64,000 nt of DNA from Bacteroidota bacterium. GTDB lineage: Bacteria > Bacteroidota > Bacteroidia > JABEUT01. A program made the translations under genes and the position numbers. The DNA lies in contig JAKAOA010000001.1 in NCBI GenBank assembly GCA_021823405.1, positions 43,628-107,627 of the forward strand, written 5' to 3'. How positions within the stretch are numbered: the stretch's first letter is position 1; every line of letters starts with the position of its first letter. The notes under the pieces are model-generated. The model had not been told where the DNA came from. It worked only from the letters and a program-made list of their open reading frames with translations, and searched no databases. This document shows, one piece after another, positions 1,422 through 46,507 of the stretch.

Positions 1422-2179
1422 TGAAGGTAATAGGAATAATACCCGCCCGCTACGGTTCCTCGCGTTTTCCGGGCAAACCATTAGCCGATATTAACGGCAA
1501 AACCATGATTTGCAGAGTTTATGAGCAAGCTGCAAAAAGCAAATCCCTTTCGCACCTCGTAGTAGCCACCGATGACCAACGGATAATGGACGAGGTGAAG
1601 AAGTTCGGCGGCAACGGCATAATGACAAGGAACAGCCACCGCAGCGGTACCGACCGCTGCCTCGAAGCGCTCGAAAAATTGGAAAGAATAAATGCCGCAG
1701 AACAGTGGGATGTAGTTGTAAATATTCAGGGCGATGAACCATTCATACACCCTGAACAGATAGATAAAGTGACCGCATGTTTCAATATCCGAAAAGAAAA
1801 GAATGCCGGAATACAAATTTCCACTCTGGTTTGCAAAATAGATGAGCCGCGCGAACTGCAACAGCCCAGCGTGGTAAAAGTAGTGCGCCAGACCGACGGC
1901 AAAGCTCTATACTTCAGCCGCTCGCCTATACCTTACTTTAGAGAGAACACCGATAAACCATGGACACGAAAACATGATTACCTGAAACATATCGGTATTT
2001 ACGGCTTTCGCGCTTCTGTGCTCAAAGAACTTGTAAAACTTTCACCCTCCCCCCTCGAAATTGCCGAATCGCTTGAGCAGCTGCGATGGCTCGAAAATGG
2101 ATATACCATCCATACAGAAATAACGGATAAAGAAACATTTTCAATAGATACCCCCGAAGATTTGCTAAAAATAATTTAA
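1421..2179 (+). CDS. kdsB: 3-deoxy-manno-octulosonate cytidylyltransferase (CMP-KDO synthetase)
   Basis: N-terminal MKVIGIIPARYGSSRFPGKPL and the overall length match KdsB. The start overlaps the upstream stop as TAATG. Confidence 0.9.
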   Translation: MKVIGIIPARYGSSRFPGKPLADINGKTMICRVYEQAAKSKSLSHLVVATDDQRIMDEVKKFGGNGIMTRNSHRSGTDRCLEALEKLERINAAEQWDVVVNIQGDEPFIHPEQIDKVTACFNIRKEKNAGIQISTLVCKIDEPRELQQPSVVKVVRQTDGKALYFSRSPIPYFRENTDKPWTRKHDYLKHIGIYGFRASVLKELVKLSPSPLEIAESLEQLRWLENGYTIHTEITDKETFSIDTPEDLLKII

Positions 2180-2305
2180 CAATTGCTCCAGTCACACCTT
2201 TAGGCAAGGAATAAAGTAAAGGTAACCTTTTTTACTATCTACCCACTCCTTGGAGTAAGAAGATGACATGGCGACGCATATTGTTCAAAACTATTTTAAT
2301 TAAAT

Positions 2306-2396
2306 ATGTATTATGTAATAAATAATGTATATATTTGCGTTTTATAACTATGAGATATTAGAGATAAGATATAAACTATGAGCGATGAACTATAAG
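2306..2396. repeat. AT-rich block 'X' of the left inverted-repeat arm (inverted copy at 12391-12472)
   Basis: atgtattatgtaataaataatgtatatatttgcg has one mismatch against the reverse complement of 12441-12472. The shared motifs ataaactatgag and gcgatgaactat are rearranged between the two copies. Confidence 0.7.
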
Positions 2397-2525
2397 ATTA
2401 ACGTCTTATCCGGCAGGCGGCAATACTTTAGGTCTATTTTAAAGGAACGATGAATAACAAAACAAACGCAAAAAATAGTGACCACGACAATTATTCTGAA
2501 CAAAACAGATATGATCAATTCATTT

Positions 2526-3069
2526 AACGGGTTGACACGGGTTAACAGATTTTGGGCTGTTTTAAATTGAATAAACTTGCAAATCAACATATTATGATTT
2601 TTAGAAGGCAGAAAAGTGTCAACCCGTTCAGTTTACTAGCCGTAGGCGGTGATTTAAGCAGGTTCAATTCATACAGAATACCCCTGTCGGGAACAACAAG
2701 AGCGGCAAATTTGGACACTTTTTACCCCGAACCTGTGCAAAACTGTCCAAAATTTATCTACACACTATATTATTGAAGCGGATATGAAAATAACAAAATG
2801 GACACTTTTTACCGTGAACCTGTGCAAAACTGTCCAAAATTTAGCTACACACTATATTATGGAAGCGGATATGAAAATAACAAAATGGACACTTTTTACC
2901 GTGAACCTGTGCAAAACTGTCCAAAATTTAGCTACACACTATATTATGAAAGCGGATATAAAAATAAGAGTTATGGACACTTTATACCGTAAAGCTATGC
3001 CAAAATGTGCCCGACTACTGGAGTGGTGTGCCATTTTAATGCACACACGATATATGGGAGCGATTATGA
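2526..3069. repeat. Left inverted-repeat arm block 'Y': a leader, three tandem 87/88 bp units (2710-2797, 2798-2884, 2885-2972) and a degenerate terminal unit
   Basis: The reverse complement of 11614-11993 aligns along the whole length. Each unit carries the hairpin TTTGGACA(C)...TGTCCAAA. Units are contiguous with no spacers. Confidence 0.85.
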
Positions 3070-3312
3070 AAAATTATTATTTATTGTCACCATTAGCGGA
3101 TTATGTTTATGAAAATCAATGGAATCGAAAAAACAGTCCGGAATTTACATACGGTTGCATCCTTATCCTTGAATAACTTATATTAAATAAAAGTAAAACT
3201 GTAATATGCAATATAGTACTTACCCGCTGTAACAGCCGGCTATCAATAATAACAAACCGCCATTAGGCAGGTTGCAGGTTAATAAACCGTTTAATCCCTG
3301 TTTTTTTTAACT

Positions 3313-3834
3313 TTGAACAAAATTGCAATTATGCAAACCCTAATTTTAAACGCCGACCAAATTCAAAAAAAAATAACCCGTATAGCTTATGAGATATACG
3401 AAGCGCATGCCGGCGAAAAGGAAATAATTCTGGCAGGCATTACCCCCGGCGGTTATCTTTTTGCAGCAAGGATAAAGCACGCCTTACAGAAAATATCACC
3501 CCTTACCATTCAATTAACTAAAGTGGGAATAGATAAATCGAAGCCCGCATATCCTGCAGAAATTGAAATGGATAAAAAGCAAAAACCGGACAATATGTCG
3601 ATTGTACTGGCGGACGATGTGCTGAACACCGGTACCATACTGGCATACAGCATGAAAGCATTCCTCAATTTTCCCGTAAAATCAATTCGTATTGCAGTTC
3701 TTATCGACCGCAACCATACCATTTACCCAATTAAGTCGGATTATACCGGCTTATCAATTGCTACCACATTGCAGGAACATGTAGTGGTGAACCTGGAAAC
3801 AAAAGGGAAAGAATTTGTTGCGCTCGAAGATTAA
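3313..3834 (+). CDS. pyrR: PyrR-family phosphoribosyltransferase (bifunctional pyr regulator / uracil PRTase-like)
   Basis: ILNADQIQKKITRIAYEI, the PRPP-binding VLADDVLNTGTIL motif, and IAVLIDRNHTIYPIKSDYTG are each collinear with B. subtilis PyrR. Confidence 0.8.
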   Translation: MNKIAIMQTLILNADQIQKKITRIAYEIYEAHAGEKEIILAGITPGGYLFAARIKHALQKISPLTIQLTKVGIDKSKPAYPAEIEMDKKQKPDNMSIVLADDVLNTGTILAYSMKAFLNFPVKSIRIAVLIDRNHTIYPIKSDYTGLSIATTLQEHVVVNLETKGKEFVALED

Positions 3835-3855
3835 AAAAGAGATTTTGAGTAAGCT

Positions 3856-4992
3856 ATGGAGTTTGTACAGGTAAATGATTCCGAAACGAAGAAGGATTTT
3901 CACAAACTGCCATTTCTCATTTATAAAGATGACGTAAACTGGATTCCTCACCTCCGACAAGATATTGAGGAGGTTTTCGATACGGGGCTAAATATATGCT
4001 TTAACCATGGTGACGCCATTAGATGGGTGTTGTATGACGGAAGCAGGAAACCGATAGGCAGAGTTGCCGCTTTCATCAATAAAAAAACTGCTTACACCTA
4101 TACCCAACCAACCGGGGGAATGGGATTCTTTGAATGTATTAACGATAAAGCGACCGCTTTCGCTCTGTTCGACAAATGCGTTGAATGGCTGAAGGAACGA
4201 GGGATGAGCGCAATGGACGGTCCGGTAAACTTTGGCGAAAAAGACCGCTACTGGGGACTGCTGGACGATGGATATGATAAACCGGCAATATATGCGATGA
4301 ACCACAACCCTCCATACTATAAACGGTTTTTTGAAGAATACGGGTTCACCGGTTTCTACGAACAGATAGTATATTACCGCAATACAGTTGACCCCCCAAA
4401 TGCACGGCTGGTAAAACTGGCGGAACGGATAACGAGCGATCCGCATTATCGTATTGAAACACTTGATAAAAAAAATGCCGCAAAATATGCCGAGGATTTC
4501 AGAACCATTTACAACAAAGCATGGAAGGCGGAAAGAGCCGATTTTGAAGAACTGACCAAGGAACGCGCACTATCTCTCATGGGTAAACTTAAACCTATCC
4601 TTGATGAGGATACAAACTGGTTCGCTTACCATAATAATGAACCGGCAGGCGTTTTTATCTGCATCCCTGAACTGAATGTCATCATGAAGCATCTGCATGG
4701 TAATTTTAACCTCTGGGGCAAACTGAAGTTTCTTTGGTATTTGAAAACCAAAGGGTGCAGGACAATGCTAGGCATCGTATTCGGAATAGCGCCAGAATTT
4801 CAGGGTAAGGGAATTGAGGCGGCGATTTTTACGGAATTGGGTAAGAGGATACAACCTAAAAAATCGTATGACCATATTTTAATAAGTTGGATAGGAAATT
4901 TTAACCGGAAAATGATGCACCTTCTAACAGCCCTGCTCGATACAGTACCTTACAAAAAGTTCATCACCTACCGTTTTATTTTCAAAAGCTGA
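3856..4992 (+). CDS. Hypothetical protein, possibly a tandem GNAT-fold acyltransferase
   Basis: 378 aa ORF with coding-like composition. Secondary-structure pattern and a GIEAAIF-type segment are weakly reminiscent of the GNAT fold. No firm motif. Confidence 0.35.
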   Translation: MEFVQVNDSETKKDFHKLPFLIYKDDVNWIPHLRQDIEEVFDTGLNICFNHGDAIRWVLYDGSRKPIGRVAAFINKKTAYTYTQPTGGMGFFECINDKATAFALFDKCVEWLKERGMSAMDGPVNFGEKDRYWGLLDDGYDKPAIYAMNHNPPYYKRFFEEYGFTGFYEQIVYYRNTVDPPNARLVKLAERITSDPHYRIETLDKKNAAKYAEDFRTIYNKAWKAERADFEELTKERALSLMGKLKPILDEDTNWFAYHNNEPAGVFICIPELNVIMKHLHGNFNLWGKLKFLWYLKTKGCRTMLGIVFGIAPEFQGKGIEAAIFTELGKRIQPKKSYDHILISWIGNFNRKMMHLLTALLDTVPYKKFITYRFIFKS

Positions 4993-5045
4993 TAAATGAC
5001 TTGTTAAAACTATTATCTTTGCACGCTATTTTTAAAAATATTGTT

Positions 5046-5118
5046 GATTCCGTAGCTCAGTTGGTAGAGCACAACACTTTTAATGTTGGGGTCGCGGGTT
5101 CGAGCCCCGCCGGGATCA
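5046..5118 (+). tRNA. tRNA-Lys (anticodon TTT)
   Basis: Cloverleaf: acceptor gattccg/cgggatc (one G-U), D-arm gctcagttggtagagc, anticodon arm caaca-cTTTtaa-tgttg, T-arm gcgggttcgagccccgc, discriminator A. CCA is not encoded. Confidence 0.85.
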
Positions 5119-5336
5119 CAGTATTGCGCAGCATAAATCGCTTCGCCTCATTAGCTAAAACACGCGCATATCTGTTCGCTCATTTCAGCATTACTTTTCT
5201 TCGCTGCAATTGCTATATTTTTTTGGATATCTTTATGAACCTAAAAAGGTTGTTAATATCAGCTTGGTCATTAGTAATGGAGTTTCATTCCTTAACGATC
5301 AAAAATTATTAAAACGATTAATTATATTTAAGGAGT

Positions 5337-6872
5337 ATGCTGGTAAAAACATTCGGAAGTGCGGTACATGGAATTGATGCCACCCTCATAACAGTGGAGG
5401 TTAATGTTGGCACGGGTGTAAATTTCTTCTTGGTGGGATTGCCCGACAGCGCAGTAAAGGAAAGCCAGCAACGTATTGACGCAGCCCTGAAAAATAACGG
5501 ATACAGCATACAGGGCAAAACGATTACCATAAATATGGCGCCCGCCGATATAAGAAAGGAAGGTTCAGCATACGACCTTACAATAGCCATCGGTATACTT
5601 GCAGCTTCGGAACAAATGAAACCGGATAGTGTGGGTAACTATGTGATTATGGGAGAACTGTCATTAGATGGCGGGCTGCAGCCCATAAAAGGTGTGTTGC
5701 CTATTGCAATAAACGCACGGGCGCAAGGCATAAAGGGAATTATACTGCCCGAACAAAATGCTCGCGAAGCCGCCATAGTTGACGGGTTAATGGTTTACGG
5801 CATTAAGAATATAAAACAGGCGATTGACTTCCTGAATGGCGAAATGAACCTGGATCCTATGGTGATAGACGCCAAGGAAGCATTTTATACTCAACTCACC
5901 CAGTCCGATGTAGATTTTGCCGATGTAAAGGGACAGGAAAACATAAAACGATCTCTGGAAATAGCGGCTGCCGGCGGTCATAATGTATTACTGATTGGTC
6001 CGCCGGGCGCCGGTAAAACCATGCTTGCCAAGCGGCTACCGACCATACTACCGCCGCTTACCCTTGAAGAAGCCCTTGAAACTACCAAAATACATTCGGT
6101 GGCGGGTAAAATAGGTAGCGGTAAAGGATTGGTAACGACACGCCCCTTTCGCGCTCCTCATCATACCATAAGCGATGTAGCGCTAGTAGGCGGCGGCGGA
6201 TTCCCCCAGCCGGGCGAAATATCGCTTGCTCATAACGGCGTCCTTTTCCTTGATGAACTGCCGGAGTTTAAAAGAACGGTATTAGAGGTGATGCGTCAGC
6301 CGCTGGAAGACAGAATAATCAGAATATCGAGGGCAAAATCATCGGTGGAGTTTCCTGCAAGTTTCATGCTTGTAACAGCAATGAACCCTTGCCCCTGCGG
6401 CTACTATAATCACCCGCAGAAGGAGTGCGTTTGCGCCCCGGGAACAGTTCAAAAATATTTGAACCGCATTTCAGGACCACTTCTTGACCGGATTGATATA
6501 CATATTGAGGTGGTGCCTGTTGCTTATGGGGAGCTGTCGTCCGAAAGAGTAAACGAGAAAAGTGAGAAGGTAAGAGAACGCGTGATAAAAGCCAGAACAA
6601 TTCAGGCGGAGCGATTCGCCGATACACCTATATACTGTAATGCCCAGATGAGCTCAAAGCAATTAAAAACCTATTGCGCAATTAACGATGCCGGTCATGC
6701 ATTGCTAAAAACGGCGATGGAAAAGCTAAATCTATCTGCACGGGCATACGACAGGATTCTCAAAGTAGCAAGAACAATCGCCGATTTAAACGAATCAGCA
6801 GGTATTGAAACAGCGCACCTTGCCGAAGCGATTAATTACCGGAGTTTGGACCGGGAAAACTGGGCCGGTTGA
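5337..6872 (+). CDS. comM: YifB/ComM family Mg-chelatase-like AAA+ ATPase
   Basis: N-terminal Lon-like region MLVKTFGSAVHGIDATLITVEV. Walker A is GPPGAGKT. The C-terminal Mg-chelatase ChlI domain is present. Total length 511 aa. Confidence 0.9.
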   Translation: MLVKTFGSAVHGIDATLITVEVNVGTGVNFFLVGLPDSAVKESQQRIDAALKNNGYSIQGKTITINMAPADIRKEGSAYDLTIAIGILAASEQMKPDSVGNYVIMGELSLDGGLQPIKGVLPIAINARAQGIKGIILPEQNAREAAIVDGLMVYGIKNIKQAIDFLNGEMNLDPMVIDAKEAFYTQLTQSDVDFADVKGQENIKRSLEIAAAGGHNVLLIGPPGAGKTMLAKRLPTILPPLTLEEALETTKIHSVAGKIGSGKGLVTTRPFRAPHHTISDVALVGGGGFPQPGEISLAHNGVLFLDELPEFKRTVLEVMRQPLEDRIIRISRAKSSVEFPASFMLVTAMNPCPCGYYNHPQKECVCAPGTVQKYLNRISGPLLDRIDIHIEVVPVAYGELSSERVNEKSEKVRERVIKARTIQAERFADTPIYCNAQMSSKQLKTYCAINDAGHALLKTAMEKLNLSARAYDRILKVARTIADLNESAGIETAHLAEAINYRSLDRENWAG

Positions 6873-6938
6873 GTACGAAATCTATATGACAACGTGAGAC
6901 AATCCCACTGACCGGATTACCGTTTATGAGCATACAGA

Positions 6939-8486
6939 ATGAAAACATTTTTCTCCAGATATCTTGGACTAGCCCTGTTCAGCGGCGCTTTAATTATCGG
7001 GATTAGTACATACAAAGGTTATGGTATTTCGTGGGACGAGGGTATTCAGCGCCAGCTTGGAGAAGCCACGTACAATTATCTTTTTCATGGTCAGGATTCG
7101 CTGAAATATTCCCACAACAAGGAATATGGCATTGCTTTTGAATTACCATTGTTTATGCTCGAAAAAATAATGCACCTTACCGACACCAGGGCAATTTATC
7201 TAATGAGACATCTGGTAACACATATCTTCTTTTTAATTAGCGCCTTGTTCTTTTTTTTACTTATCGATTACTTGTATAGAAATAAATTATTGGCGGCTTT
7301 CGGCATTCTGTGTCTGCTAACTACACCTCTCATTTACGGTCATTCCTTTTTTAATTCCAAAGATGTAGTTTTTCTTTCCATGTTCATTATTTGTTTTTAC
7401 ATTATGGCGGTTGCTTTCGAAAGGAATAGTTTACGATGGCATATCCTTCTTGGTATATCCCTTGCAATATTGATGAATATTCGTGTTATGGGCATTTTGC
7501 TGCTTGGATTCGCCTGCCTCTTCTTCGCCCTCGATATTTACAAATTAAAGAGTGATAGAAAAGCAAAAATGAAAGTTGCCCTTTTCGCTCTAACAGTTGT
7601 TTCACTCGCCTTCGGATTACTGGCAATAACCTGGCCTTATCTCTATCCCGCCCCGGTAAAAAATTTTTGGGACGCCTTCTATCATTTATCCCATTGGCAT
7701 TGGGTAGGATGGATTTTGTTCTGGGGTAAAGAATATTGGTGCTTATCTGCTCCGAAATGGTATGCCATCTCATGGTTCTGCTTTTCCAACCCGCTCCTCT
7801 ACGTAGCGTTAGGATTTATCGGAATTATAGCTATAGGAGTTGCTTTTATTAGAAAGCCAGCCCAATTCCTTGCCAATACGGTACAAAGAAACCAAATTTT
7901 ATATCTGTTCTGTTTTGCGGAGCCGCTTGCAACCGTTTATCTGCTGCATTCCGAACTGTTTGACGCCTGGAGACATCTGTTTTTTATTTATCCCGCATTC
8001 CTTCTCTGCGCCATATATGGGCTGAATATATTACTGAACACTAAGGCGCGATATGTTGTTATAATACTTGCCGGTTTAAATTTTATCTATATCGCCTTTT
8101 ATATGATAAAGACCTACCCTTACGAGTACATCTATTTTAACGAACTGATCCGGCAACGGTATGAACCGCAATACCTGCGTACCCATTTTGAGATGGACTA
8201 TTGGGGAACATCCTATACCCGCGCCTTCGAATATATTTTAAAGCATGATACTTCAGAAAATATAACTGTATCGGTACCATCGCCATCGTTAATTGGCGAT
8301 GAAAATAAATGGCTGCTCGATTCCGCCGACAGAAGCAGAATCCATATAATTCCTGATTCGACTAAAGCCGCGTATTTTGTCAGTTATTACCGTTACCACC
8401 CTTTAGATTACCCATTTCAGAATAAAGAGGTGTTCTCGGTAAAAGTGATGAACAGTACAATTATAAGCGTTTTCAAATTGAAATAA
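6939..8486 (+). CDS. Polytopic membrane protein, GT-C fold glycosyltransferase (ArnT/PMT family-like)
   Basis: At least 10 predicted TM helices. A WDEG acidic motif sits in the first extracytoplasmic loop and there is a large C-terminal soluble domain, as in GT39/GT83 enzymes. Confidence 0.5.
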   Translation: MKTFFSRYLGLALFSGALIIGISTYKGYGISWDEGIQRQLGEATYNYLFHGQDSLKYSHNKEYGIAFELPLFMLEKIMHLTDTRAIYLMRHLVTHIFFLISALFFFLLIDYLYRNKLLAAFGILCLLTTPLIYGHSFFNSKDVVFLSMFIICFYIMAVAFERNSLRWHILLGISLAILMNIRVMGILLLGFACLFFALDIYKLKSDRKAKMKVALFALTVVSLAFGLLAITWPYLYPAPVKNFWDAFYHLSHWHWVGWILFWGKEYWCLSAPKWYAISWFCFSNPLLYVALGFIGIIAIGVAFIRKPAQFLANTVQRNQILYLFCFAEPLATVYLLHSELFDAWRHLFFIYPAFLLCAIYGLNILLNTKARYVVIILAGLNFIYIAFYMIKTYPYEYIYFNELIRQRYEPQYLRTHFEMDYWGTSYTRAFEYILKHDTSENITVSVPSPSLIGDENKWLLDSADRSRIHIIPDSTKAAYFVSYYRYHPLDYPFQNKEVFSVKVMNSTIISVFKLK

Positions 8487-8505
8487 AACGCGTTACCGGC
8501 AAAAC

Positions 8506-9687
8506 TCAAATGCAATTTTCAATTACTACTGCACTGGCTCCGCCGCCTCCGTTGCATATTCCGGCTGCGCCGTAACGAGCGTTATTCTGCTTTAACACAT
8601 TAATAAGAGTCACCAATATCCTTGAACCGGAACTGCCGAGTGCGTGCCCCAGCGAAACCCCTCCTCCATTCACATTCAACCTGTCGGGCTTTATTTCCAA
8701 TAATATTCTGTTAACTATTGCCACTACTGCGAATGCCTCATTTATTTCGAAGTAATCTATGTCTTTCATTTTCAACCCCGCCTTGGCTATAGCAAGTGGC
8801 AATGCCTTTGAAGGTGTAGTTGTAAACCTCTCCGGCGCCTGTTCGGCATCGGCGTACCCCAATATTTTAGCAAGCGGCTTTATGCCCATTTTATCGGCTT
8901 TTTCCTTGCTCATCAACACAAGTGCGGAGGCGCCGTCGTTCAGTGTAGAGGCATTGGCGGCGGTAATGGTTCCTGTTTTATCGAATACGGGAGGCAGCGA
9001 GGGAATACGATCAAAGTTCACATTTTTATGCTCTTCATCCTCGCTGTAGATAGCCGGTGGTCCTTTGCGCTGCGGTACCTCAACCTGTACCACTTCCTCT
9101 TTGAATTTTCCCGCACTCCATGCTGCGGCAGAGCGTTTATATGATTCTATTGCAAAGTCGTCCTGGTCCTTTCTGCTTATTTTATATTCTTTGGCGCACA
9201 ATTCACCTGCATTCCCCATGTGAAAATGGTTGAACGGGTCGGTAAGCCCGTCGTGAACAAGCCCGTCTATCAATATTCCGTTTCCCAGTCGGTATCCTTT
9301 CCTTGCCTTTTCCAGGTAATAGGGAACCATAGACATGTTTTCCATTCCGCCGGCAACAATCACCTCACTGTCGCCAAGCAGAATACTTTGCGTTCCGAAC
9401 ATTACAGCTTTCATTCCGGAAGCGCATACTTTATTAATGGTAGTACAGGGGATTGAGTCGGGCAAGACGGCAAATTTAGCTGCCTGGCGGGCCGGCGCTT
9501 GTCCTTCACCTGCCTGCAACACATTCCCCATCAGTACTGCGTCTATATCATGGTCGTCCAGTTTTATTCTGTCAATCGCTTTGCGAATGACTATCGCTCC
9601 GAGCGAAACGGCAGGAACCTCTGATATTATTCCGCCGAAACTGCCGGTAGGAGTTCGTACTGCAGATACTATATATACTTCTCTCAT
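8506..9687 (-). CDS. Acetyl-CoA C-acetyltransferase (thiolase II)
   Basis: MREVYIVSAVRTPTGSFGG N-terminus, active-site Cys region (NKVCASGMKA), and C-terminal GGGGASAVVIE. Confidence 0.9.
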   Translation of the reverse strand: MREVYIVSAVRTPTGSFGGIISEVPAVSLGAIVIRKAIDRIKLDDHDIDAVLMGNVLQAGEGQAPARQAAKFAVLPDSIPCTTINKVCASGMKAVMFGTQSILLGDSEVIVAGGMENMSMVPYYLEKARKGYRLGNGILIDGLVHDGLTDPFNHFHMGNAGELCAKEYKISRKDQDDFAIESYKRSAAAWSAGKFKEEVVQVEVPQRKGPPAIYSEDEEHKNVNFDRIPSLPPVFDKTGTITAANASTLNDGASALVLMSKEKADKMGIKPLAKILGYADAEQAPERFTTTPSKALPLAIAKAGLKMKDIDYFEINEAFAVVAIVNRILLEIKPDRLNVNGGGVSLGHALGSSGSRILVTLINVLKQNNARYGAAGICNGGGGASAVVIENCI

Positions 9688-9964
9688 CGTTCTTTGAATG
9701 GTTTAAAATTGTTCAAAAGTATTATCTTTTTATTAGTTGATGTACTTATAGTTATACATTTATACTAACACGTTGTAATAAGCTTATATTCAATATTATA
9801 TGCACTTCTTGCTTTAGCATATAATGATAAAAAGTTTGTCTTAACGCATTTTTTCATTTTATTTGTGAGACATTAGCCCGGAATGGAACAAATTCGGAAT
9901 TAATTGCTTACTATTCTTAACCCGACTATTTGATGTGCGGGAAAGAAAATTTGCATCCCTTGTT

Positions 9965-11374
9965 TCAGTTCTCGTTATCTTTTATCATTTTAAGCAATAA
10001 TTCTTCCACTTCCCTGCTGTCCCATTTACGTTCAATATCGGGTACGGCGAGAATTTTTTTCATAACTGCATCTTGTTTTGCACCCATCGCCAGGGCTTTG
10101 CTATAAGGTATATCGCTGAAAGTTACCATGGAATAAAGCGGTATCCAGAGGTCGGGATGAAGTGCACTGAAGCGGGCTTCTATCTTTTTTTGCAGGATGA
10201 AATCGGGGTGGGTGACCAGGTCGCGCATTTCAATAAAGTTGGCGACAGCCAGGTCGGCTATCGCATCGGCATTGGGTTTGCGCGCCTGCTGAAATTCCTT
10301 AGTTATGTTGCGCCATATTTCCCTGTCGTTGGCGTGCAATGCCTTGGACTGTTCGCTAAAATGGCGTTCCATAATCTGTTCCAATACAGTACAATCCTCA
10401 AAGCCGCAGTTCATACCTTGACCATAGAAGGGCACTACCCCGTGAGCCGCGTCGCCCAAAAGAGTTATTCTATCATCCGGCGACCACGGATAGCAACGTA
10501 TGGTTACGAGCGAGGCGGTAGGGTTACTGAAAAAGTCCTCCAACAGAGTTGGCATAACCGGCACAGCATCAGGGAATGTTTGCGTAAAAAATTTCTTTAC
10601 TTTATCAGGCGTATCTAGCGATGCGAACGACTCTTTTCCTTCAAACGGAAAAAACAGGGTACACGTAAAACTGCCATCAATGTTGGGTAGGGCTATCATC
10701 ATAAAAGTACCGCGCGCCCATATATGCAGACCGTTTTTATCGAAGGCGAAATCGCCGTTTTTCTTCGGTGGTATAAGTAACTCCTTGTAGCCATAGTCGA
10801 GGTAGCGCTGCGAATACTCAAACCTGTCTGTGGTGAGCTGCAAATGCAGCCGTACTGCCGAAAAGGCGCCATCCGCTCCGAATATTCGTTTGGCATTAAC
10901 AGTTGTTTCACCTGTTGAATTAACATCTGTGAGCCGCAGCTGCACATCATCATTATCGTGTAGCGATATGCCAGTGCAACGTTGATTAAAATGTATGGCA
11001 GCGCCATGTTTTTCGGCAAGGTCCATCAGCATACAGTTAAGCCCGGCGCGGGAAACGGAGAATATCGCCTGACCTTCCTTCCCGTAAGGCATAAATTGGG
11101 TATTGCCAACTTTATCATGCACCATGCGCCCCTTCATAGGTATGGCAATTTTTCTTATATCATCGTCTATGCCTACACCCTGTAATGCTTTCCAGCCGCG
11201 ATCCGAAAGAGCCAGATTAATGGATTTTCCGGCGGATATTTTCTGCTTTCGCATATCTCCGCGCCGCTCGTAAACCTCGGTTTTATACCCCCGCTTGCCA
11301 AGGTATATCGCCAGCAGAGAGCCCACAAGTCCCGCCCCGACTATTGCATAAGATTTTTCTGTCGTAATATTCAT
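9965..11374 (-). CDS. kmo: Kynurenine 3-monooxygenase (FAD-dependent)
   Basis: Collinear with eukaryotic and Cytophaga KMO. GAGLVGSL FAD motif is present, together with SINLALSDRG, FMMIALPN, LLGDAAHGVVPFYGQGMNCGFEDC. Confidence 0.85.
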   Translation of the reverse strand: MNITTEKSYAIVGAGLVGSLLAIYLGKRGYKTEVYERRGDMRKQKISAGKSINLALSDRGWKALQGVGIDDDIRKIAIPMKGRMVHDKVGNTQFMPYGKEGQAIFSVSRAGLNCMLMDLAEKHGAAIHFNQRCTGISLHDNDDVQLRLTDVNSTGETTVNAKRIFGADGAFSAVRLHLQLTTDRFEYSQRYLDYGYKELLIPPKKNGDFAFDKNGLHIWARGTFMMIALPNIDGSFTCTLFFPFEGKESFASLDTPDKVKKFFTQTFPDAVPVMPTLLEDFFSNPTASLVTIRCYPWSPDDRITLLGDAAHGVVPFYGQGMNCGFEDCTVLEQIMERHFSEQSKALHANDREIWRNITKEFQQARKPNADAIADLAVANFIEMRDLVTHPDFILQKKIEARFSALHPDLWIPLYSMVTFSDIPYSKALAMGAKQDAVMKKILAVPDIERKWDSREVEELLLKMIKDNEN

Positions 11375-11613
11375 TCGTTCTCTTTTAACCGTTAACCGGA
11401 CGCAGTATTATAAGTTTCATGCCTTTTAGTGAATGGATTTATTATGACAATGATGATAATATATAAAAATACCCCATCCAGTAAACATCTGCAAAAATAG
11501 ATACTTTTAACCAAAGCCGTGCCGAATAATTCATCACGTCTGTTATCTCTATCCGGCTTATCAGACAAACTATCAAACAAATTCCCAATAAAGAGTCAGT
11601 CATATCCATATCA

Positions 11614-11993
11614 TCATACTCGCTACCTTATATAGTGTGTGCATAAAAATGGCACACCACGCCGGTAGGCGGGCATGCTTTGGCATGGCTTCGGGGTAAA
11701 AAGTGTCCAAATCACTTATTTTTATATCCGCTTCCATAATATAGTGTGTAGATAAATTTTGGACAGTTTTGCACAGGTTCCCTATAAAAAGTGTCCAAAT
11801 TTGCCGCTCTTGTTGTTCCCGACAGGGGTATTCTGTATGAATTGAACCTGTATAAATGACCACCTGCTGCTATTGAATTGAACGGGTTAACACTTTTCCG
11901 CCTTCTAAAAATCATAATATGTTGATTATCTATTTTATTCAATTTAAAACAGCTCAAAATCTGTTAACCCGTGTCAACCCGTTAGATCTACCA
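11614..11993. repeat. Right inverted-repeat arm block 'Y': a leader, one full 88 bp unit and a degenerate terminal unit, in inverted orientation
   Basis: Its reverse complement aligns to 2526-3069 at roughly 85-90% identity outside the unit-number difference. Confidence 0.85.
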
Positions 11994-11999
11994 CTGTTG

Positions 12000-12019
12000 A
12001 ACCCGATAGCTATCGGGTT
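12000..12019. repeat. REP-like palindromic element, subtype 1 (AACCCGATAGCTATCGGGTT)
   Basis: Perfect 20 bp palindrome with the flank ttg...gccaaaattca. Member of the 7-copy family. Confidence 0.8.
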
Positions 12020-12073
12020 GCCAAAATTCACAAACCCTGTTAAGCATAGTTTAGTGAATAGTGGGAGTTGGGC

Positions 12074-12093
12074 GTCCCGATAGCTATCGGGAC
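12074..12093. repeat. REP-like palindromic element, subtype 2 (GTCCCGATAGCTATCGGGAC)
   Basis: Perfect 20 bp palindrome followed by gtgaaaagcgcaaa. Confidence 0.8.
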
Positions 12094-12390
12094 GTGAAAA
12101 GCGCAAACTCATTTGGCAGACATATCTTGCTATATGTGTTTTTGTCATTTAGTATAGAATTTACAACTTTAACTCACCGAAAGAATTCTGTCGTTTTTTG
12201 TCGGAAAATGCGTATTTTTTCATATTGCCGGTAGGGTATATTTTCAGATATTTTAATGCAACATATTGATTTACAGTTATTTTATAAATTTTTGAAAATT
12301 TGACGTTCACAAAATCATTTACAGGCACTATATTTTCTTTTCTCAAAATCATTTTCCACTATTTATTTTCTGAATTATAATTGTGTCTTT

Positions 12391-12472
12391 CATAGTTTAT
12401 ATCTCATAGTTCATCGCTTATAACTTATAGCTTCAGAGCGCAAATATATACATTATTTATTACATATTACAT
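12391..12472. repeat. AT-rich block 'X' of the right inverted-repeat arm
   Basis: Reverse complement matches 2306-2396 (see the left-arm X feature). Confidence 0.7.
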
Positions 12473-12737
12473 ATATTGATAATATATTTATTAACAATCG
12501 ACTTCACTCTGCCCTCTCGTTTTGCAAAGAGAGGTGGGAGGTAAAAGGGATTAGCTTTGTCCTATTGAAGATGTTGTCCTTTTATATTTTGGTAAGTTTT
12601 ATAGCTAAAAAGCCGCTGACTGGGATTAATCAGTGCAAATGAATAAAGTCAGATAAAAATTGACATAAGGAATTATACGGATCGTAAGTTATTTAATCTC
12701 AAAGTTTTCATAGTCCATTCGAGTTTAAACAATTAGC

Positions 12738-12766
12738 AGAAAAAAAGGCGGGTAAAAACCCGCCCT
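12738..12766 (-). terminator. Rho-independent terminator downstream of hsp20
   Basis: On the minus strand the stem GGCGGGT / ACCCGCC with a 4-nt loop is followed by a T7 tract. Confidence 0.7.
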
Positions 12767-12776
12767 TTAAAAACTG

Positions 12777-13238
12777 TTATCCAATTTCTATAACACGGGA
12801 AGTGTTAATCTTGGTTTCAGTTGATTTTGGCACGGTGATATGCAATATACCATCCTTGTAAGCTGCCGATATTTTGTCCTTTACCACCGTATCTTTAGGA
12901 ATCTGGAAGGAGCGTTGAAATGATTCAAAGCTGAACTCCCTGCGGGTGTAGTTACCTTCCTTGTCACTTTCTTCCTTGCCGTCTTCCTTGTGCCCTGAAA
13001 TTGTCAGCATGTCATTGTCAAGCTCAACTTTAAAGTTGTTCCTTTCAAGACCGGGGGCGGCTACTTCCACCTCATAACTCTTTTCTGTTTCGCGGATGTT
13101 CACTGATGGTACGCTTGCATTACCTGCCAGTCGGTTGAAAGACCAGTCAAAAATGTCCCTGTTGAATAATTCATCTAATACAGATGGAAATTCCGGGAGC
13201 AAGCTCCTGCTGTGATTTGATTTTACAAGTGTTTTCAT
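12777..13238 (-). CDS. Hsp20/alpha-crystallin family small heat-shock protein
   Basis: Alpha-crystallin domain (VNIRETEKSYEVEVAAPGLERNNFKVELDNDMLTISG ... AAYKDGILHITVPK). Confidence 0.9.
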   Translation of the reverse strand: MKTLVKSNHSRSLLPEFPSVLDELFNRDIFDWSFNRLAGNASVPSVNIRETEKSYEVEVAAPGLERNNFKVELDNDMLTISGHKEDGKEESDKEGNYTRREFSFESFQRSFQIPKDTVVKDKISAAYKDGILHITVPKSTETKINTSRVIEIG

Positions 13239-13442
13239 AATTAGTCCTCCTTAATTTTATGTCTGCCACTTTCTATTTTTAATGACAGACGGGTTAAACA
13301 TTAAATTGAATTAATCATAAATAAGATTGCAATCTTGATTTGATTACTATCAAAACCTTTGCCAGAAAATTTATGACAAAAGTTAAAAAGTGTTAATCAA
13401 AATTCGGCAGAAAATATGTCTTGTGCAAAACGACCATAATTG

Positions 13443-13462
13443 AACCAGATAGCTATCAGGAC
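13443..13462. repeat. REP-like palindromic element, subtype 2, slightly degenerate (AACCAGATAGCTATCAGGAC)
   Basis: Carries the core ...GATAGCTATC... and the downstream motif gcaatcgcaaaat shared with 12094 and 26240. Sits in the hsp20/pirin divergent promoter region. Confidence 0.65.
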
Positions 13463-13637
13463 GCAATCGCAAAATTACTTGCGCACAATGTAATATCTTC
13501 GTTTCATTTTATAGTCAGATCTTTCCATGCCAAATTCTATTTTATATTCTTGCAATTTATCATTTCTTAATCTACATTAAGGAAAAGTTCTATCCGGTAT
13601 ATCTATTTTTGTCGCCGAATTTAGCGGAAACAATAGT

Positions 13638-14519
13638 ATGGAAATTATTGAACAAGGCATGAAAACAAGAACTGTACAGCAAATTACGAAAGCATTGCCC
13701 CAAATTATGGGCGATGATACAATCTACCAGCCATTCCCAAGCCACGCCCTGCAGCACGTTGACCCGTTCATATTACTGCACCACTGGGGTCCATACACCT
13801 TTCAGCCCGAAAATGACGCCTTTTCGGTAGGCGCGCATCCGCATCGCGGTTTTGAACCTGTTACCTTTATCTTTCAGGGTGAAGTTCACCACCGCGACTC
13901 TATGGGAAACGACAGCATTATAAAAGAGGGAGGCATACAATGGATGACCGCAGGCAGAGGCGTAATGCATTCCGAAACCGGTACCGACGAATTTCATAAG
14001 AAGGGCGGTAATTTTGAAATTATACAGGTTTGGATGAACCTGCCTAAGAAATTGAAAATGGCTGAACCATTTTATCAGGGTTACCAGTCAGACCAAATCC
14101 CAACTCTTTTTCAGGACGGGAAGAAGGTGGAATTAAAAATCGCCTCCGGTAAATACCGGAATATTGCAGGTCCCGTTAAATCGCCTACGGATATAAACTC
14201 CTTCATGATATATATGCAAGAAAACGGAAGAGCTGAAATTGAACTGGAAGAACAAAAAAATGTAATGCTCTACTTGCTCGATGGTTCGGTTAACGTGAAT
14301 AATACAAGTATAAAATCGGCAAGGAACGCTATAACATTCCGGAATGATGGAACGCTAATTAATATTGAGGCAACGGGCAAAAGTAAACTGCTGTTGCTTG
14401 CCGGTAACCCGATAAACGAACCGGTGGCGCAATATGGTCCCTTCGTTATGAATACGCGTGAGGAACTAAATCTTGCTTTTGAGGACTTTTACAATGGCAA
14501 AATGGGAACTTTAAAATGA
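13638..14519 (+). CDS. Pirin family protein (bicupin)
   Basis: HPHRGFEPVTFIFQGEVHHRDSMGN metal-binding cupin motif. 293 aa. Confidence 0.9.
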   Translation: MEIIEQGMKTRTVQQITKALPQIMGDDTIYQPFPSHALQHVDPFILLHHWGPYTFQPENDAFSVGAHPHRGFEPVTFIFQGEVHHRDSMGNDSIIKEGGIQWMTAGRGVMHSETGTDEFHKKGGNFEIIQVWMNLPKKLKMAEPFYQGYQSDQIPTLFQDGKKVELKIASGKYRNIAGPVKSPTDINSFMIYMQENGRAEIELEEQKNVMLYLLDGSVNVNNTSIKSARNAITFRNDGTLINIEATGKSKLLLLAGNPINEPVAQYGPFVMNTREELNLAFEDFYNGKMGTLK

Positions 14520-26028: not shown

Positions 26029-26048
26029 AACCCGATAGCTATTGGGTT
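26029..26048. repeat. REP-like palindromic element, subtype 1 (AACCCGATAGCTATTGGGTT, 1 mismatch)
   Basis: Carries the same caattg and gttaaaattca flanks as the copies at 12000, 35002 and 46471 (opposite orientation to the latter two). Confidence 0.75.
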
Positions 26049-26221: not shown

Positions 26222-26239
26222 CTTGATAACTATCGGGAC
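26222..26239. repeat. REP-like palindromic element, subtype 2, degenerate left half (cttgataactatcgggac)
   Basis: Followed by gcggtcgcaaaat, the subtype-2 flank. Preceded at 26176-26190 by ttgtcggtatatttt, the conserved tail motif of the longer element. Confidence 0.55.
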
Positions 26240-46416: not shown

Positions 46417-46507
46417 GCAAAATACTTATACGAGGAGTTCTACATATGCTTTGAATTTGCGTATTTTGGCAACCCGATAGCTATCGGGTTCAATTGTGGT
46501 CGGTATA
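46417..46507. repeat. Long (~91 bp) form of the REP/MITE-like element (palindrome core 46471-46490)
   Basis: Collinear with 34947-35037. The core is the perfect palindrome AACCCGATAGCTATCGGGTT. Confidence 0.8.

Follow-up and report, generated by a model that had tools for sequence, protein, structure and literature searches.

Two inverted intergenic arms around a housekeeping block of a Bacteroidota genome as candidate members of a small dispersed repeat family

The stretch under study is a 64,000-nucleotide (nt) window of the genome of a Bacteroidota bacterium (contig JAKAOA010000001.1 of assembly GCA_021823405.1, positions 43,628 to 107,627). Two non-coding arms within it, at 2261-3075 on the plus strand and at 11608-12517 on the minus strand, are reverse complements of each other and bracket an 8.5-kb block of housekeeping genes (3076-11607). 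A reading made earlier from the letters alone (the sequence-only reading) had described the arms as a pair. They do not stand alone, as at least two further copies of their 225-nt core, C3 and C4, occur in the same genome, giving at least four core copies (left, right, C3 and C4), all of them intergenic. The explanation favoured here, with about even confidence, is that the arms are two neighbouring and opposed members of a species-restricted, non-autonomous family of dispersed intergenic repeats resembling miniature inverted-repeat transposable elements (MITEs). The bracket around the housekeeping block is probably a by-product of the spread of this repeat and not a dedicated inversion device.

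The further copies were recovered through a protein search. The core contains a reading frame that stays open (window positions 2546-2773), and its translation was compared with 1.84 billion representative proteins because gene callers might have called spurious open reading frames (ORFs) on other copies. Three small-ORF matches were obtained (P0242, P0243 and P0244), all from the same metagenome-assembled genome (MAG) and sample (GCA_027320225.1, ERZ27237364). P0244 is the left arm itself, while P0242 and P0243 are ORFs starting "MIFRRQKSVNPF..." on the two further copies. C3 (contigs L138/L139) lies upstream of a DHH-family gene and C4 (L140/L141) upstream of a radical-SAM gene. The region common to all four copies is approximately 225 nt long (window 2526-2750) and has sharp 5′ and 3′ limits, beyond which the flanks are unrelated.

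Core identities across the four copies are 89-93% and star-like: 93.0% for left-C3, 90.7% for right-C4, 90.4% for C3-C4, 89.3% for left-C4, 89.1% for right-C3 and approximately 89-91% for left-right. As the left copy is closer to C3 than to the right arm, the bracket is best regarded as two neighbouring members of a dispersed family. The copies also differ in the number of 87-nt units that follow the core (three in the left, one in the right, about one in C4, which retains one degenerate full unit, and about 0.5 in C3). The outer X block, the 48-nt tail of the 87-nt unit and the terminal variant unit are common to the left and right copies only. It has been noted that short-read contigs terminate within element copies.

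The arms themselves are well founded. Comparison of positions 1500-13500 with themselves yields three inverted pairs: 2522-2793 with 11716-11987 (272 nt, 92% identity), 2886-3069 with 11614-11797 (184 nt, 87%) and, around X, 2261-2400 with 12378-12517 (140 nt, 71%). These bear out the earlier description of reverse-complementary arms. The X stretch with a single mismatch that had been pointed out is likewise present and measures 34 nt (2306-2339 against 12472-12439), and the longest run identical between the arms is 66 nt (2659-2724). Matches to three diagnostic patterns in the 64-kb window are confined to the two arms, and shuffled sequences give none. The flanks upstream of X and beyond the terminal unit of Y, the inner part of each arm, show no relation between left and right. 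Independent assemblies of the same organism (NCBI MAG GCA_027320225.1, ENA ERZ27237364 and Logan SRR13206618) were also used. The left arm is spanned by contig L001 and the right by L131, at 99.97-99.98% identity and with no gaps, and the structure is therefore real and not an assembly artefact.

The restriction of the family to this lineage is indicated by its relatives. The nearest ones, reached through a 378-aa protein encoded in the block, show 81%, 79% and 72% identity in that protein, and pyrR adjoins its gene in them. In L003 and L010, the intergenic stretch before pyrR measures no more than about 100-250 nt and the element is absent, and the pyrR-upstream regions of L004 and L007 differ and contain no arm. 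In the relatives reached through kmo (73-75% identity), an upstream block of S66, DUF4412, UPF0102 and UPF0093 genes is conserved in L134, L135 and L136, with a 235-aa ORF also present in L134 and L135. No trace of this kmo-upstream block was found anywhere in the 64-kb window, the region compared with it being 11375-12776. The closest relatives, whose proteins are 73-81% identical, lack the element at the syntenic positions, which marks it as lineage-specific, and the missing conserved block places the right arm at a lineage-specific synteny break or rearrangement point.

Searches further afield agree with a narrow distribution. Exact unit and core patterns found no match in IMG/VR or the JGI metagenomes, and in the GTDB species representatives a single chance match, which falls within the coding sequence of a sufS-like gene from an Armatimonadota MAG; these JGI and GTDB scans need exact matches, so diverged relatives could escape them. 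A sensitive blastn search of phages and plasmids returned no match, and a phage, plasmid or satellite origin was rejected on the lack of any DNA match.

Each arm reads inward, the left on the plus strand and the right on the minus strand, in the order X block, heptamer repeats, spacer, core, 87-nt tandem units and terminal variant unit. The X block occupies 34 nt (2306-2339, +; 12439-12472, −) and contains an inward-facing canonical Bacteroidetes-type −7 box, for which the consensus TAnnTTTG was used: TATATTTG lies at 2330-2337 in the left arm and at 12448-12441 in the right. Outward-facing TAnnTTTG boxes also exist upstream of X, at 2293-2286 (−) and 12552-12559 (+), at non-equivalent distances of 37 and 104 nt, and are probably due to chance. 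The heptamer repeats (2346-2400, +; 12378-12432, −) are of the AACTATG type and only weakly alike between the arms. The left spacer (2401-2521, +, 121 nt) has no significant likeness to the right spacer (11988-12377, −, 390 nt), in which the REP-like palindrome CCCGATAGCTATCGGG is found at 12002-12017 and 12076-12091. The sequence-only reading had described the right arm as the left arm with an insertion of about 380 bp holding two REP-like palindromes. The palindromes are there, but the homology falls into two distinct blocks, X and Y, and since the spacers that part them are dissimilar the right arm is not to be seen simply as the left arm with such an insertion.

Y consists of a 189-nt core beginning AACGGGTTGACACGGGTTAACAG and then the 87-nt tandem units. 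The family-wide 225-nt core (AACGGGTTGACAC...TGTCCAA) lies at 2526-2750 (+) in the left arm and at 11759-11983 (−) in the right, and contains an inverted-repeat pair A/B (2526-2538 and 2616-2628, +) and a hairpin C/D (2710-2718 and 2743-2751, +). The motif GACACTTTT, or a near variant, is present four times per core in alternating orientation, which creates two inverted-repeat pairs with motif spacings of 26 and 75 nt; GGGTTRAC is present three times.

The 87-nt unit is composed of the C/D hairpin, TTTGGACAC...CTGTCCAAA, and a 48-nt tail. The left arm has three such units across 2711-2971 (+; 2711-2797, 2798-2884 and 2885-2971) and the right arm has one (11712-11798, −). The terminal variant unit that follows on the left (2972-3075, +) carries a 21-nt insert and the hairpin GUGUGC..GCACAC, and homology stops there; its right counterpart (11608-11711, −) is 81% identical. 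The totals are thus 3+1 on the left and 1+1 on the right, and this difference in unit number between the arms is minisatellite behaviour.

Taken as a whole, the element shows dispersed, non-identical copies, an intergenic non-coding location and a layout of leader, variable repeat and tail, as in MITE-like elements. The closest described analogue, judged by layout, is BrickBuilt of Porphyromonas gingivalis, a MITE built as leader-(23 nt)n-tail, of which 19 copies lie between genes and which shows promoter activity (PMC4596501). BrickBuilt has small, defined terminal inverted repeats, is restricted to its species and reaches up to approximately 1 kb (PMC4596501). The two share the phylum, a strictly intergenic and non-coding nature, species restriction, the leader-(tandem repeat)n-tail order, variable repeat number and the occurrence of partial forms. 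In both, spurious ORFs have been called by annotators, and promoter elements have been reported inside BrickBuilt. They differ in the repeat itself, which is 23 nt in BrickBuilt and an 87-nt hairpin-containing unit here, and in that BrickBuilt has 19 copies and defined terminal repeats, in contrast to the four known copies and ill-defined terminal repeats of the present element.

Other modular repeats are more distant. The BOX elements of Streptococcus pneumoniae, a member of a different phylum, have the form boxA-boxB(n)-boxC and exceed 100 copies per genome. They are likewise dispersed intergenic repeats with stable hairpins and a middle module that varies in copy number, but their modules differ and no sequence relation to the element is to be expected. 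REP sequences and REPINs, which RAYT transposases mobilise, are built from palindromic units of 20-40 nt; these number in the hundreds, and REPs also lie on either side of the RAYT gene. Like them, the element is made of hairpin-forming inverted pairs of a short motif and has an intergenic, lineage-restricted distribution. The 225-nt unit, the motif spacings and the lack of a known RAYT gene set the element apart, and the CCCGATAGCTATCGGG family in the right spacer fits the REP description better.

In the favoured explanation, the MITE-like family would have spread or been copied recently within the lineage through a transposase acting in trans or through recombination-based copying. The last hairpin of the core with its 48-nt tail would have been amplified into the 87-nt minisatellite (four units on the left and two on the right, terminal variants included). 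A local event probably produced one of the left and right copies from the other; these two have the X block, the 48-nt tail and the terminal variant in common and lie 8.5 kb apart. The enclosure of the block would be a by-product of this, although the pair could serve as a substrate for RecA-dependent inversion.

Confidence in the MITE-like nature stays about even because three hallmarks of MITEs, namely target-site duplications, a cognate transposase and clear terminal inverted repeats, are not established, and several observations weigh against it. No clean terminal inverted repeats or target-site duplications are definable at the core limits. The 5′ sequence TTGACACGGGTTAACAG and the reverse complement of the core 3′ end give an imperfect match of 11/17, assessed by eye, and the flanking bases (ATTT, AATTC, TTC) are inconsistent across copies. 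Within the parts of the genome that were covered, no candidate transposase emerged and just four copies are known. Conservation along the arms is uneven, at 97% for the X block and 91% for the core, with none in the spacer. Furthermore, all four copies are aimed at the start of a downstream gene, 240-450 nt away. This uneven conservation and co-orientation, together with the −7 boxes upstream of the left, right and C4 cores, fit a transcribed functional unit as well as or better than a passive mobile element.

It is on these grounds that the arms may be viewed as multi-copy genes for a non-coding RNA (ncRNA), transcribed forward from an X-type promoter through the core and units and acting in trans or on the downstream gene, an explanation that is rather unlikely on the evidence as it stands. 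The canonical TAnnTTTG box sits within the best-conserved 34-nt block of both arms, and an X-like box, AAATAAATCTATATTTTTG, is found about 150 nt upstream of the C4 core (L140 45-52). Conservation covers the promoter block and the core but leaves out the spacer. The distance from promoter to core, however, ranges from 150 to 460 nt, and the core limits match neither a promoter nor a terminator. On the right arm, the forward strand of the terminal unit forms a GC-rich hairpin followed by U5; in the 87-nt units, a hairpin with a U-run appears on the reverse strand only and no canonical Bacteroidetes promoter is present. Tandem small RNA arrays such as NsiR1 of Nostoc resemble these units in being intergenic, tandem and of similar size with hairpins, but each of their units has a promoter and a terminator.

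Substitutions cluster (P ~0.01-0.03) in the predicted loops between motif sites. The forward consensus fold of the four cores has 68 pairs, in which 11 one-sided changes are kept through G-U pairing and 5 cells are broken; the reverse consensus fold has 4 kept, 1 double change and 10 broken. This excess on the forward strand favours a transcribed RNA, but the RNAalifold structure was fitted to the same four sequences on which it is judged. Compensatory double changes are lacking on the forward strand, and on neither strand does any measure exceed the shuffle controls, with four sequences affording low power. The folding z-scores (forward −0.96, −3.39, −0.64 and −3.39; reverse −2.95, −2.47, −1.13 and −2.78) vary without consistency between copies and strands, the forward strand faring no better than the reverse, and are attributable to the inverted repeats, not to a fold particular to one strand. 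A palindromic DNA element fits the data at least as well as a structured RNA; transcription starting at the X box may occur.

The lack of an Rfam family and of orthologues in relatives also speaks against ncRNA genes. In the window, tRNA-Lys is the sole match to pass in Rfam, and the left arm reaches a best E-value of 2.9, far below any gathering score; a known RNA family was accordingly rejected. The sequence-only reading had also entertained a duplicated intergenic RNA locus. As an intergenic, non-coding duplication this came close to the truth, but the element belongs to no known RNA family.

Less probable again is that the element is a functional, lineage-specific module instead of selfish DNA, in the form of a modular ncRNA of approximately 0.7 kb, transcribed from a conserved Bacteroidetes promoter of its own, or a binding array for an unknown protein. 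In that event the number of hairpin units would be tuned by minisatellite expansion, and the module would be placed co-directionally upstream of unrelated housekeeping genes.

Inversion of the block, the principal idea of the sequence-only reading, ranks lower still and is improbable. In this explanation a segment of about 0.8 kb would have been duplicated locally in inverted orientation and maintained by gene conversion, its main consequence being that homologous recombination flips the 8.5-kb block. In its favour are the X block, 48-nt tail and terminal unit shared by the left and right copies only, their inverted placement 8.5 kb apart, the 66-nt identical run and the position of the right arm exactly at the break of the kmo-upstream synteny kept in three relatives. 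A run of that length is enough for RecA-dependent exchange, and on sequence grounds a RecA-dependent inversion of the block would be mechanistically possible. A segment between two inverted copies of several hundred bp is also what is seen with large inverting repeats such as rrn operons and insertion sequence (IS) copies. The arms differ from those in being non-coding, 87-92% identical and observed in one orientation. Divergence of 8-13% would lower recombination.

The contigs give no support to inversion. L001 joins kdsB, the arm and pyrR, and L131 joins an HSP20 gene, the arm and kmo, both as in the window; no alternative orientation was found among the arm-spanning contigs of the ENA, NCBI and Logan assemblies. 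Base-composition skew tracks gene strand and gives no inversion signal, and the left-right core identity is not above that of left-C3. The neighbours of pyrR and kmo in relatives fit no simple block inversion; an ancestral inversion could not be reconstructed from them, as the surroundings of pyrR vary among them and the genes conserved next to kmo do not occur in the window. A site-specific invertible segment was rejected, there being no recombinase in or beside the block and a single orientation on all arm-spanning contigs.

The least probable of the surviving explanations, and a distinctly doubtful one, is a cis-acting DNA module in which the alternating GACACTTTT sites and the three GGGTTRAC sites form a binding-site array for a DNA-binding protein, with an insulator, operator or partition- or origin-like role. 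The motif TTGRACACTTTT occurs ten times in the window, with nine of the ten sites in the arms, against an expectation of 1.05. The sites are arranged as inverted pairs with fixed spacing; the arms of the repeats are conserved, whereas the hairpin loops are hypervariable. The architecture is reminiscent of centromere-like tandem repeats, of which sopC is an example. The genes nearby, however, encode no candidate binding protein, and pyrR, kmo, the DHH-family gene and the radical-SAM gene are without obvious common regulation. All four of these downstream genes also possess a TAnnTTTG box of their own, situated between element and start codon, and TTGRACACTTTT is absent from the other intergenic regions of the window.

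The own −7 boxes bear equally on the possibility that the arms are long 5′ leaders of pyrR and kmo. That of pyrR lies at 3308-3315 (+) and that of kmo at 11499-11492 (−), close to the respective start codons, so the arms are separate entities and a role as leaders is unlikely.

Protein-coding arms were rejected on several counts. The 23 differences in the 272-nt block are split 8/7/8 by codon position and the variable columns across the four core copies 9/10/10, and the ratio of nonsynonymous to synonymous polymorphism (pN/pS) in the core ORF region of the four copies is alike in the three forward frames (0.54, 0.72 and 0.56). The ORFs differ between the arms, and the longest, of 130 aa over the left units, has neither a right-arm counterpart nor protein homologues. 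Scanning the entire right intergenic region against Pfam in six frames gave no match. These results uphold the earlier placement of the arms as non-coding in long intergenic gaps, and the searches and the Pfam scan likewise leave standing the view that they are neither an IS nor an rRNA-associated repeat nor an Rfam family. An IS or composite transposon was discarded, as the ORFs, the right-arm Pfam scan and the protein search revealed no transposase gene or remnant in the arms. By inspection, the points where arm homology ends (2261/12517 and 3075/11608) display no inverted termini and no flanking direct repeats, the limits at the X end being fuzzy.

The remaining candidates can be dismissed briefly. 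The other matches of the core-frame search were to giant Ig-repeat proteins, but a relic of an Ig-repeat adhesin gene was rejected, as the similarities of P0245-P0248 are due to chance, at only 20-31 bits per stretch and amplified by repetition within the sequences; Pfam gives no match, and the "YPEP" match is exclusive to the left copy. A CRISPR array was excluded because the entire 87-nt period repeats, leaving no unique spacers, and the flanking genes carry no cas domains. A replication origin, terminus or fork trap was set aside on the skew, which follows gene strand only, and on reading the sequence, which yielded no convincing DnaA boxes.

The block itself encodes a pyrR-like phosphoribosyltransferase, the 378-aa protein, tRNA-Lys(UUU) at 5046-5119, comM, a PMT_2 glycosyltransferase and, on the minus strand, a thiolase and kmo. 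Gene and domain annotation confirms this previously reported content, and no recombinase or transposase was found in or beside the block. The 378-aa protein has no Pfam match of its own; some homologues have a GNAT domain or carry JGI's GNAT name. Within comM, all short-read contigs (ENA, NCBI and Logan) stop at 5491 or restart at 5513/5514. The right-hand contigs at this break (5491-5513) end CCGGGTAAAACG where the window reads ACAGGGCAAAACG, which is probably a strain-level cluster of single-nucleotide polymorphisms or an assembly bubble.

The heptamers within X belong to a microsatellite that is generic in Bacteroidota, and they are not specific to the arms. A 22-nt heptamer pattern of AACTATG/AGCTATG, of the (NNNTATG)n class, was found on at least 120 metagenome contigs (loci L011-L130), where such repeats are often located directly 5′ of TTTG..TAnnTTTG promoters or form inverted hairpin pairs. 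TAACTGA heptamer repeats, comparable to those of X, have been described (PMC4679880). A homology of X to the promoter of a helix-turn-helix (HTH) gene in the relative L004, whose product is like a phage terminase small subunit, was rejected, as the shared motif is this generic microsatellite. A separate family of REP-like palindromes, TTTTGGCAACCCGATAGCTATCGGGTTCAA, occupies six sites in the window, where 0.13 would be expected: 12002-12017 and 12076-12091, both inside the right-arm spacer, and 13445-13460, 26031-26046, 26222-26237 and 46473-46488. Downstream of C3 (L138 350-470) lie five close GTATAC palindromes (GGTATACC, GGTATACA, TGTATACC and others) that are absent from the other copies.

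Two of the relatives have gene content of their own in the region. L004 (72% identity) has a 2.6-kb islet at 6891-9501, between an E1 dehydrogenase gene and pyrR, which encodes the stand-alone HTH protein mentioned above (phrog_4044, 4e-9) and PKD, SRPBCC and DUF922-like proteins. In L003 (81% identity), umuC, umuD and a Hypoth_Ymh gene follow tRNA-Lys instead of comM (9459-14002), in what looks like an island at a tRNA.

The case serves as a caution that a kb-scale inverted bracket around housekeeping genes may consist of two adjacent members of one small family of dispersed repeats. The host is an uncultured, soil-type Bacteroidia genome that also bears REP-like palindromes and heptamer microsatellites. 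Families of this kind fragment short-read assemblies and can seed rearrangements. As it stands, the element is one more orphan MITE-like element with a minisatellite in the manner of BrickBuilt; if the family proves to be transcribed or bound by a protein, it would constitute a new Bacteroidota regulatory element.

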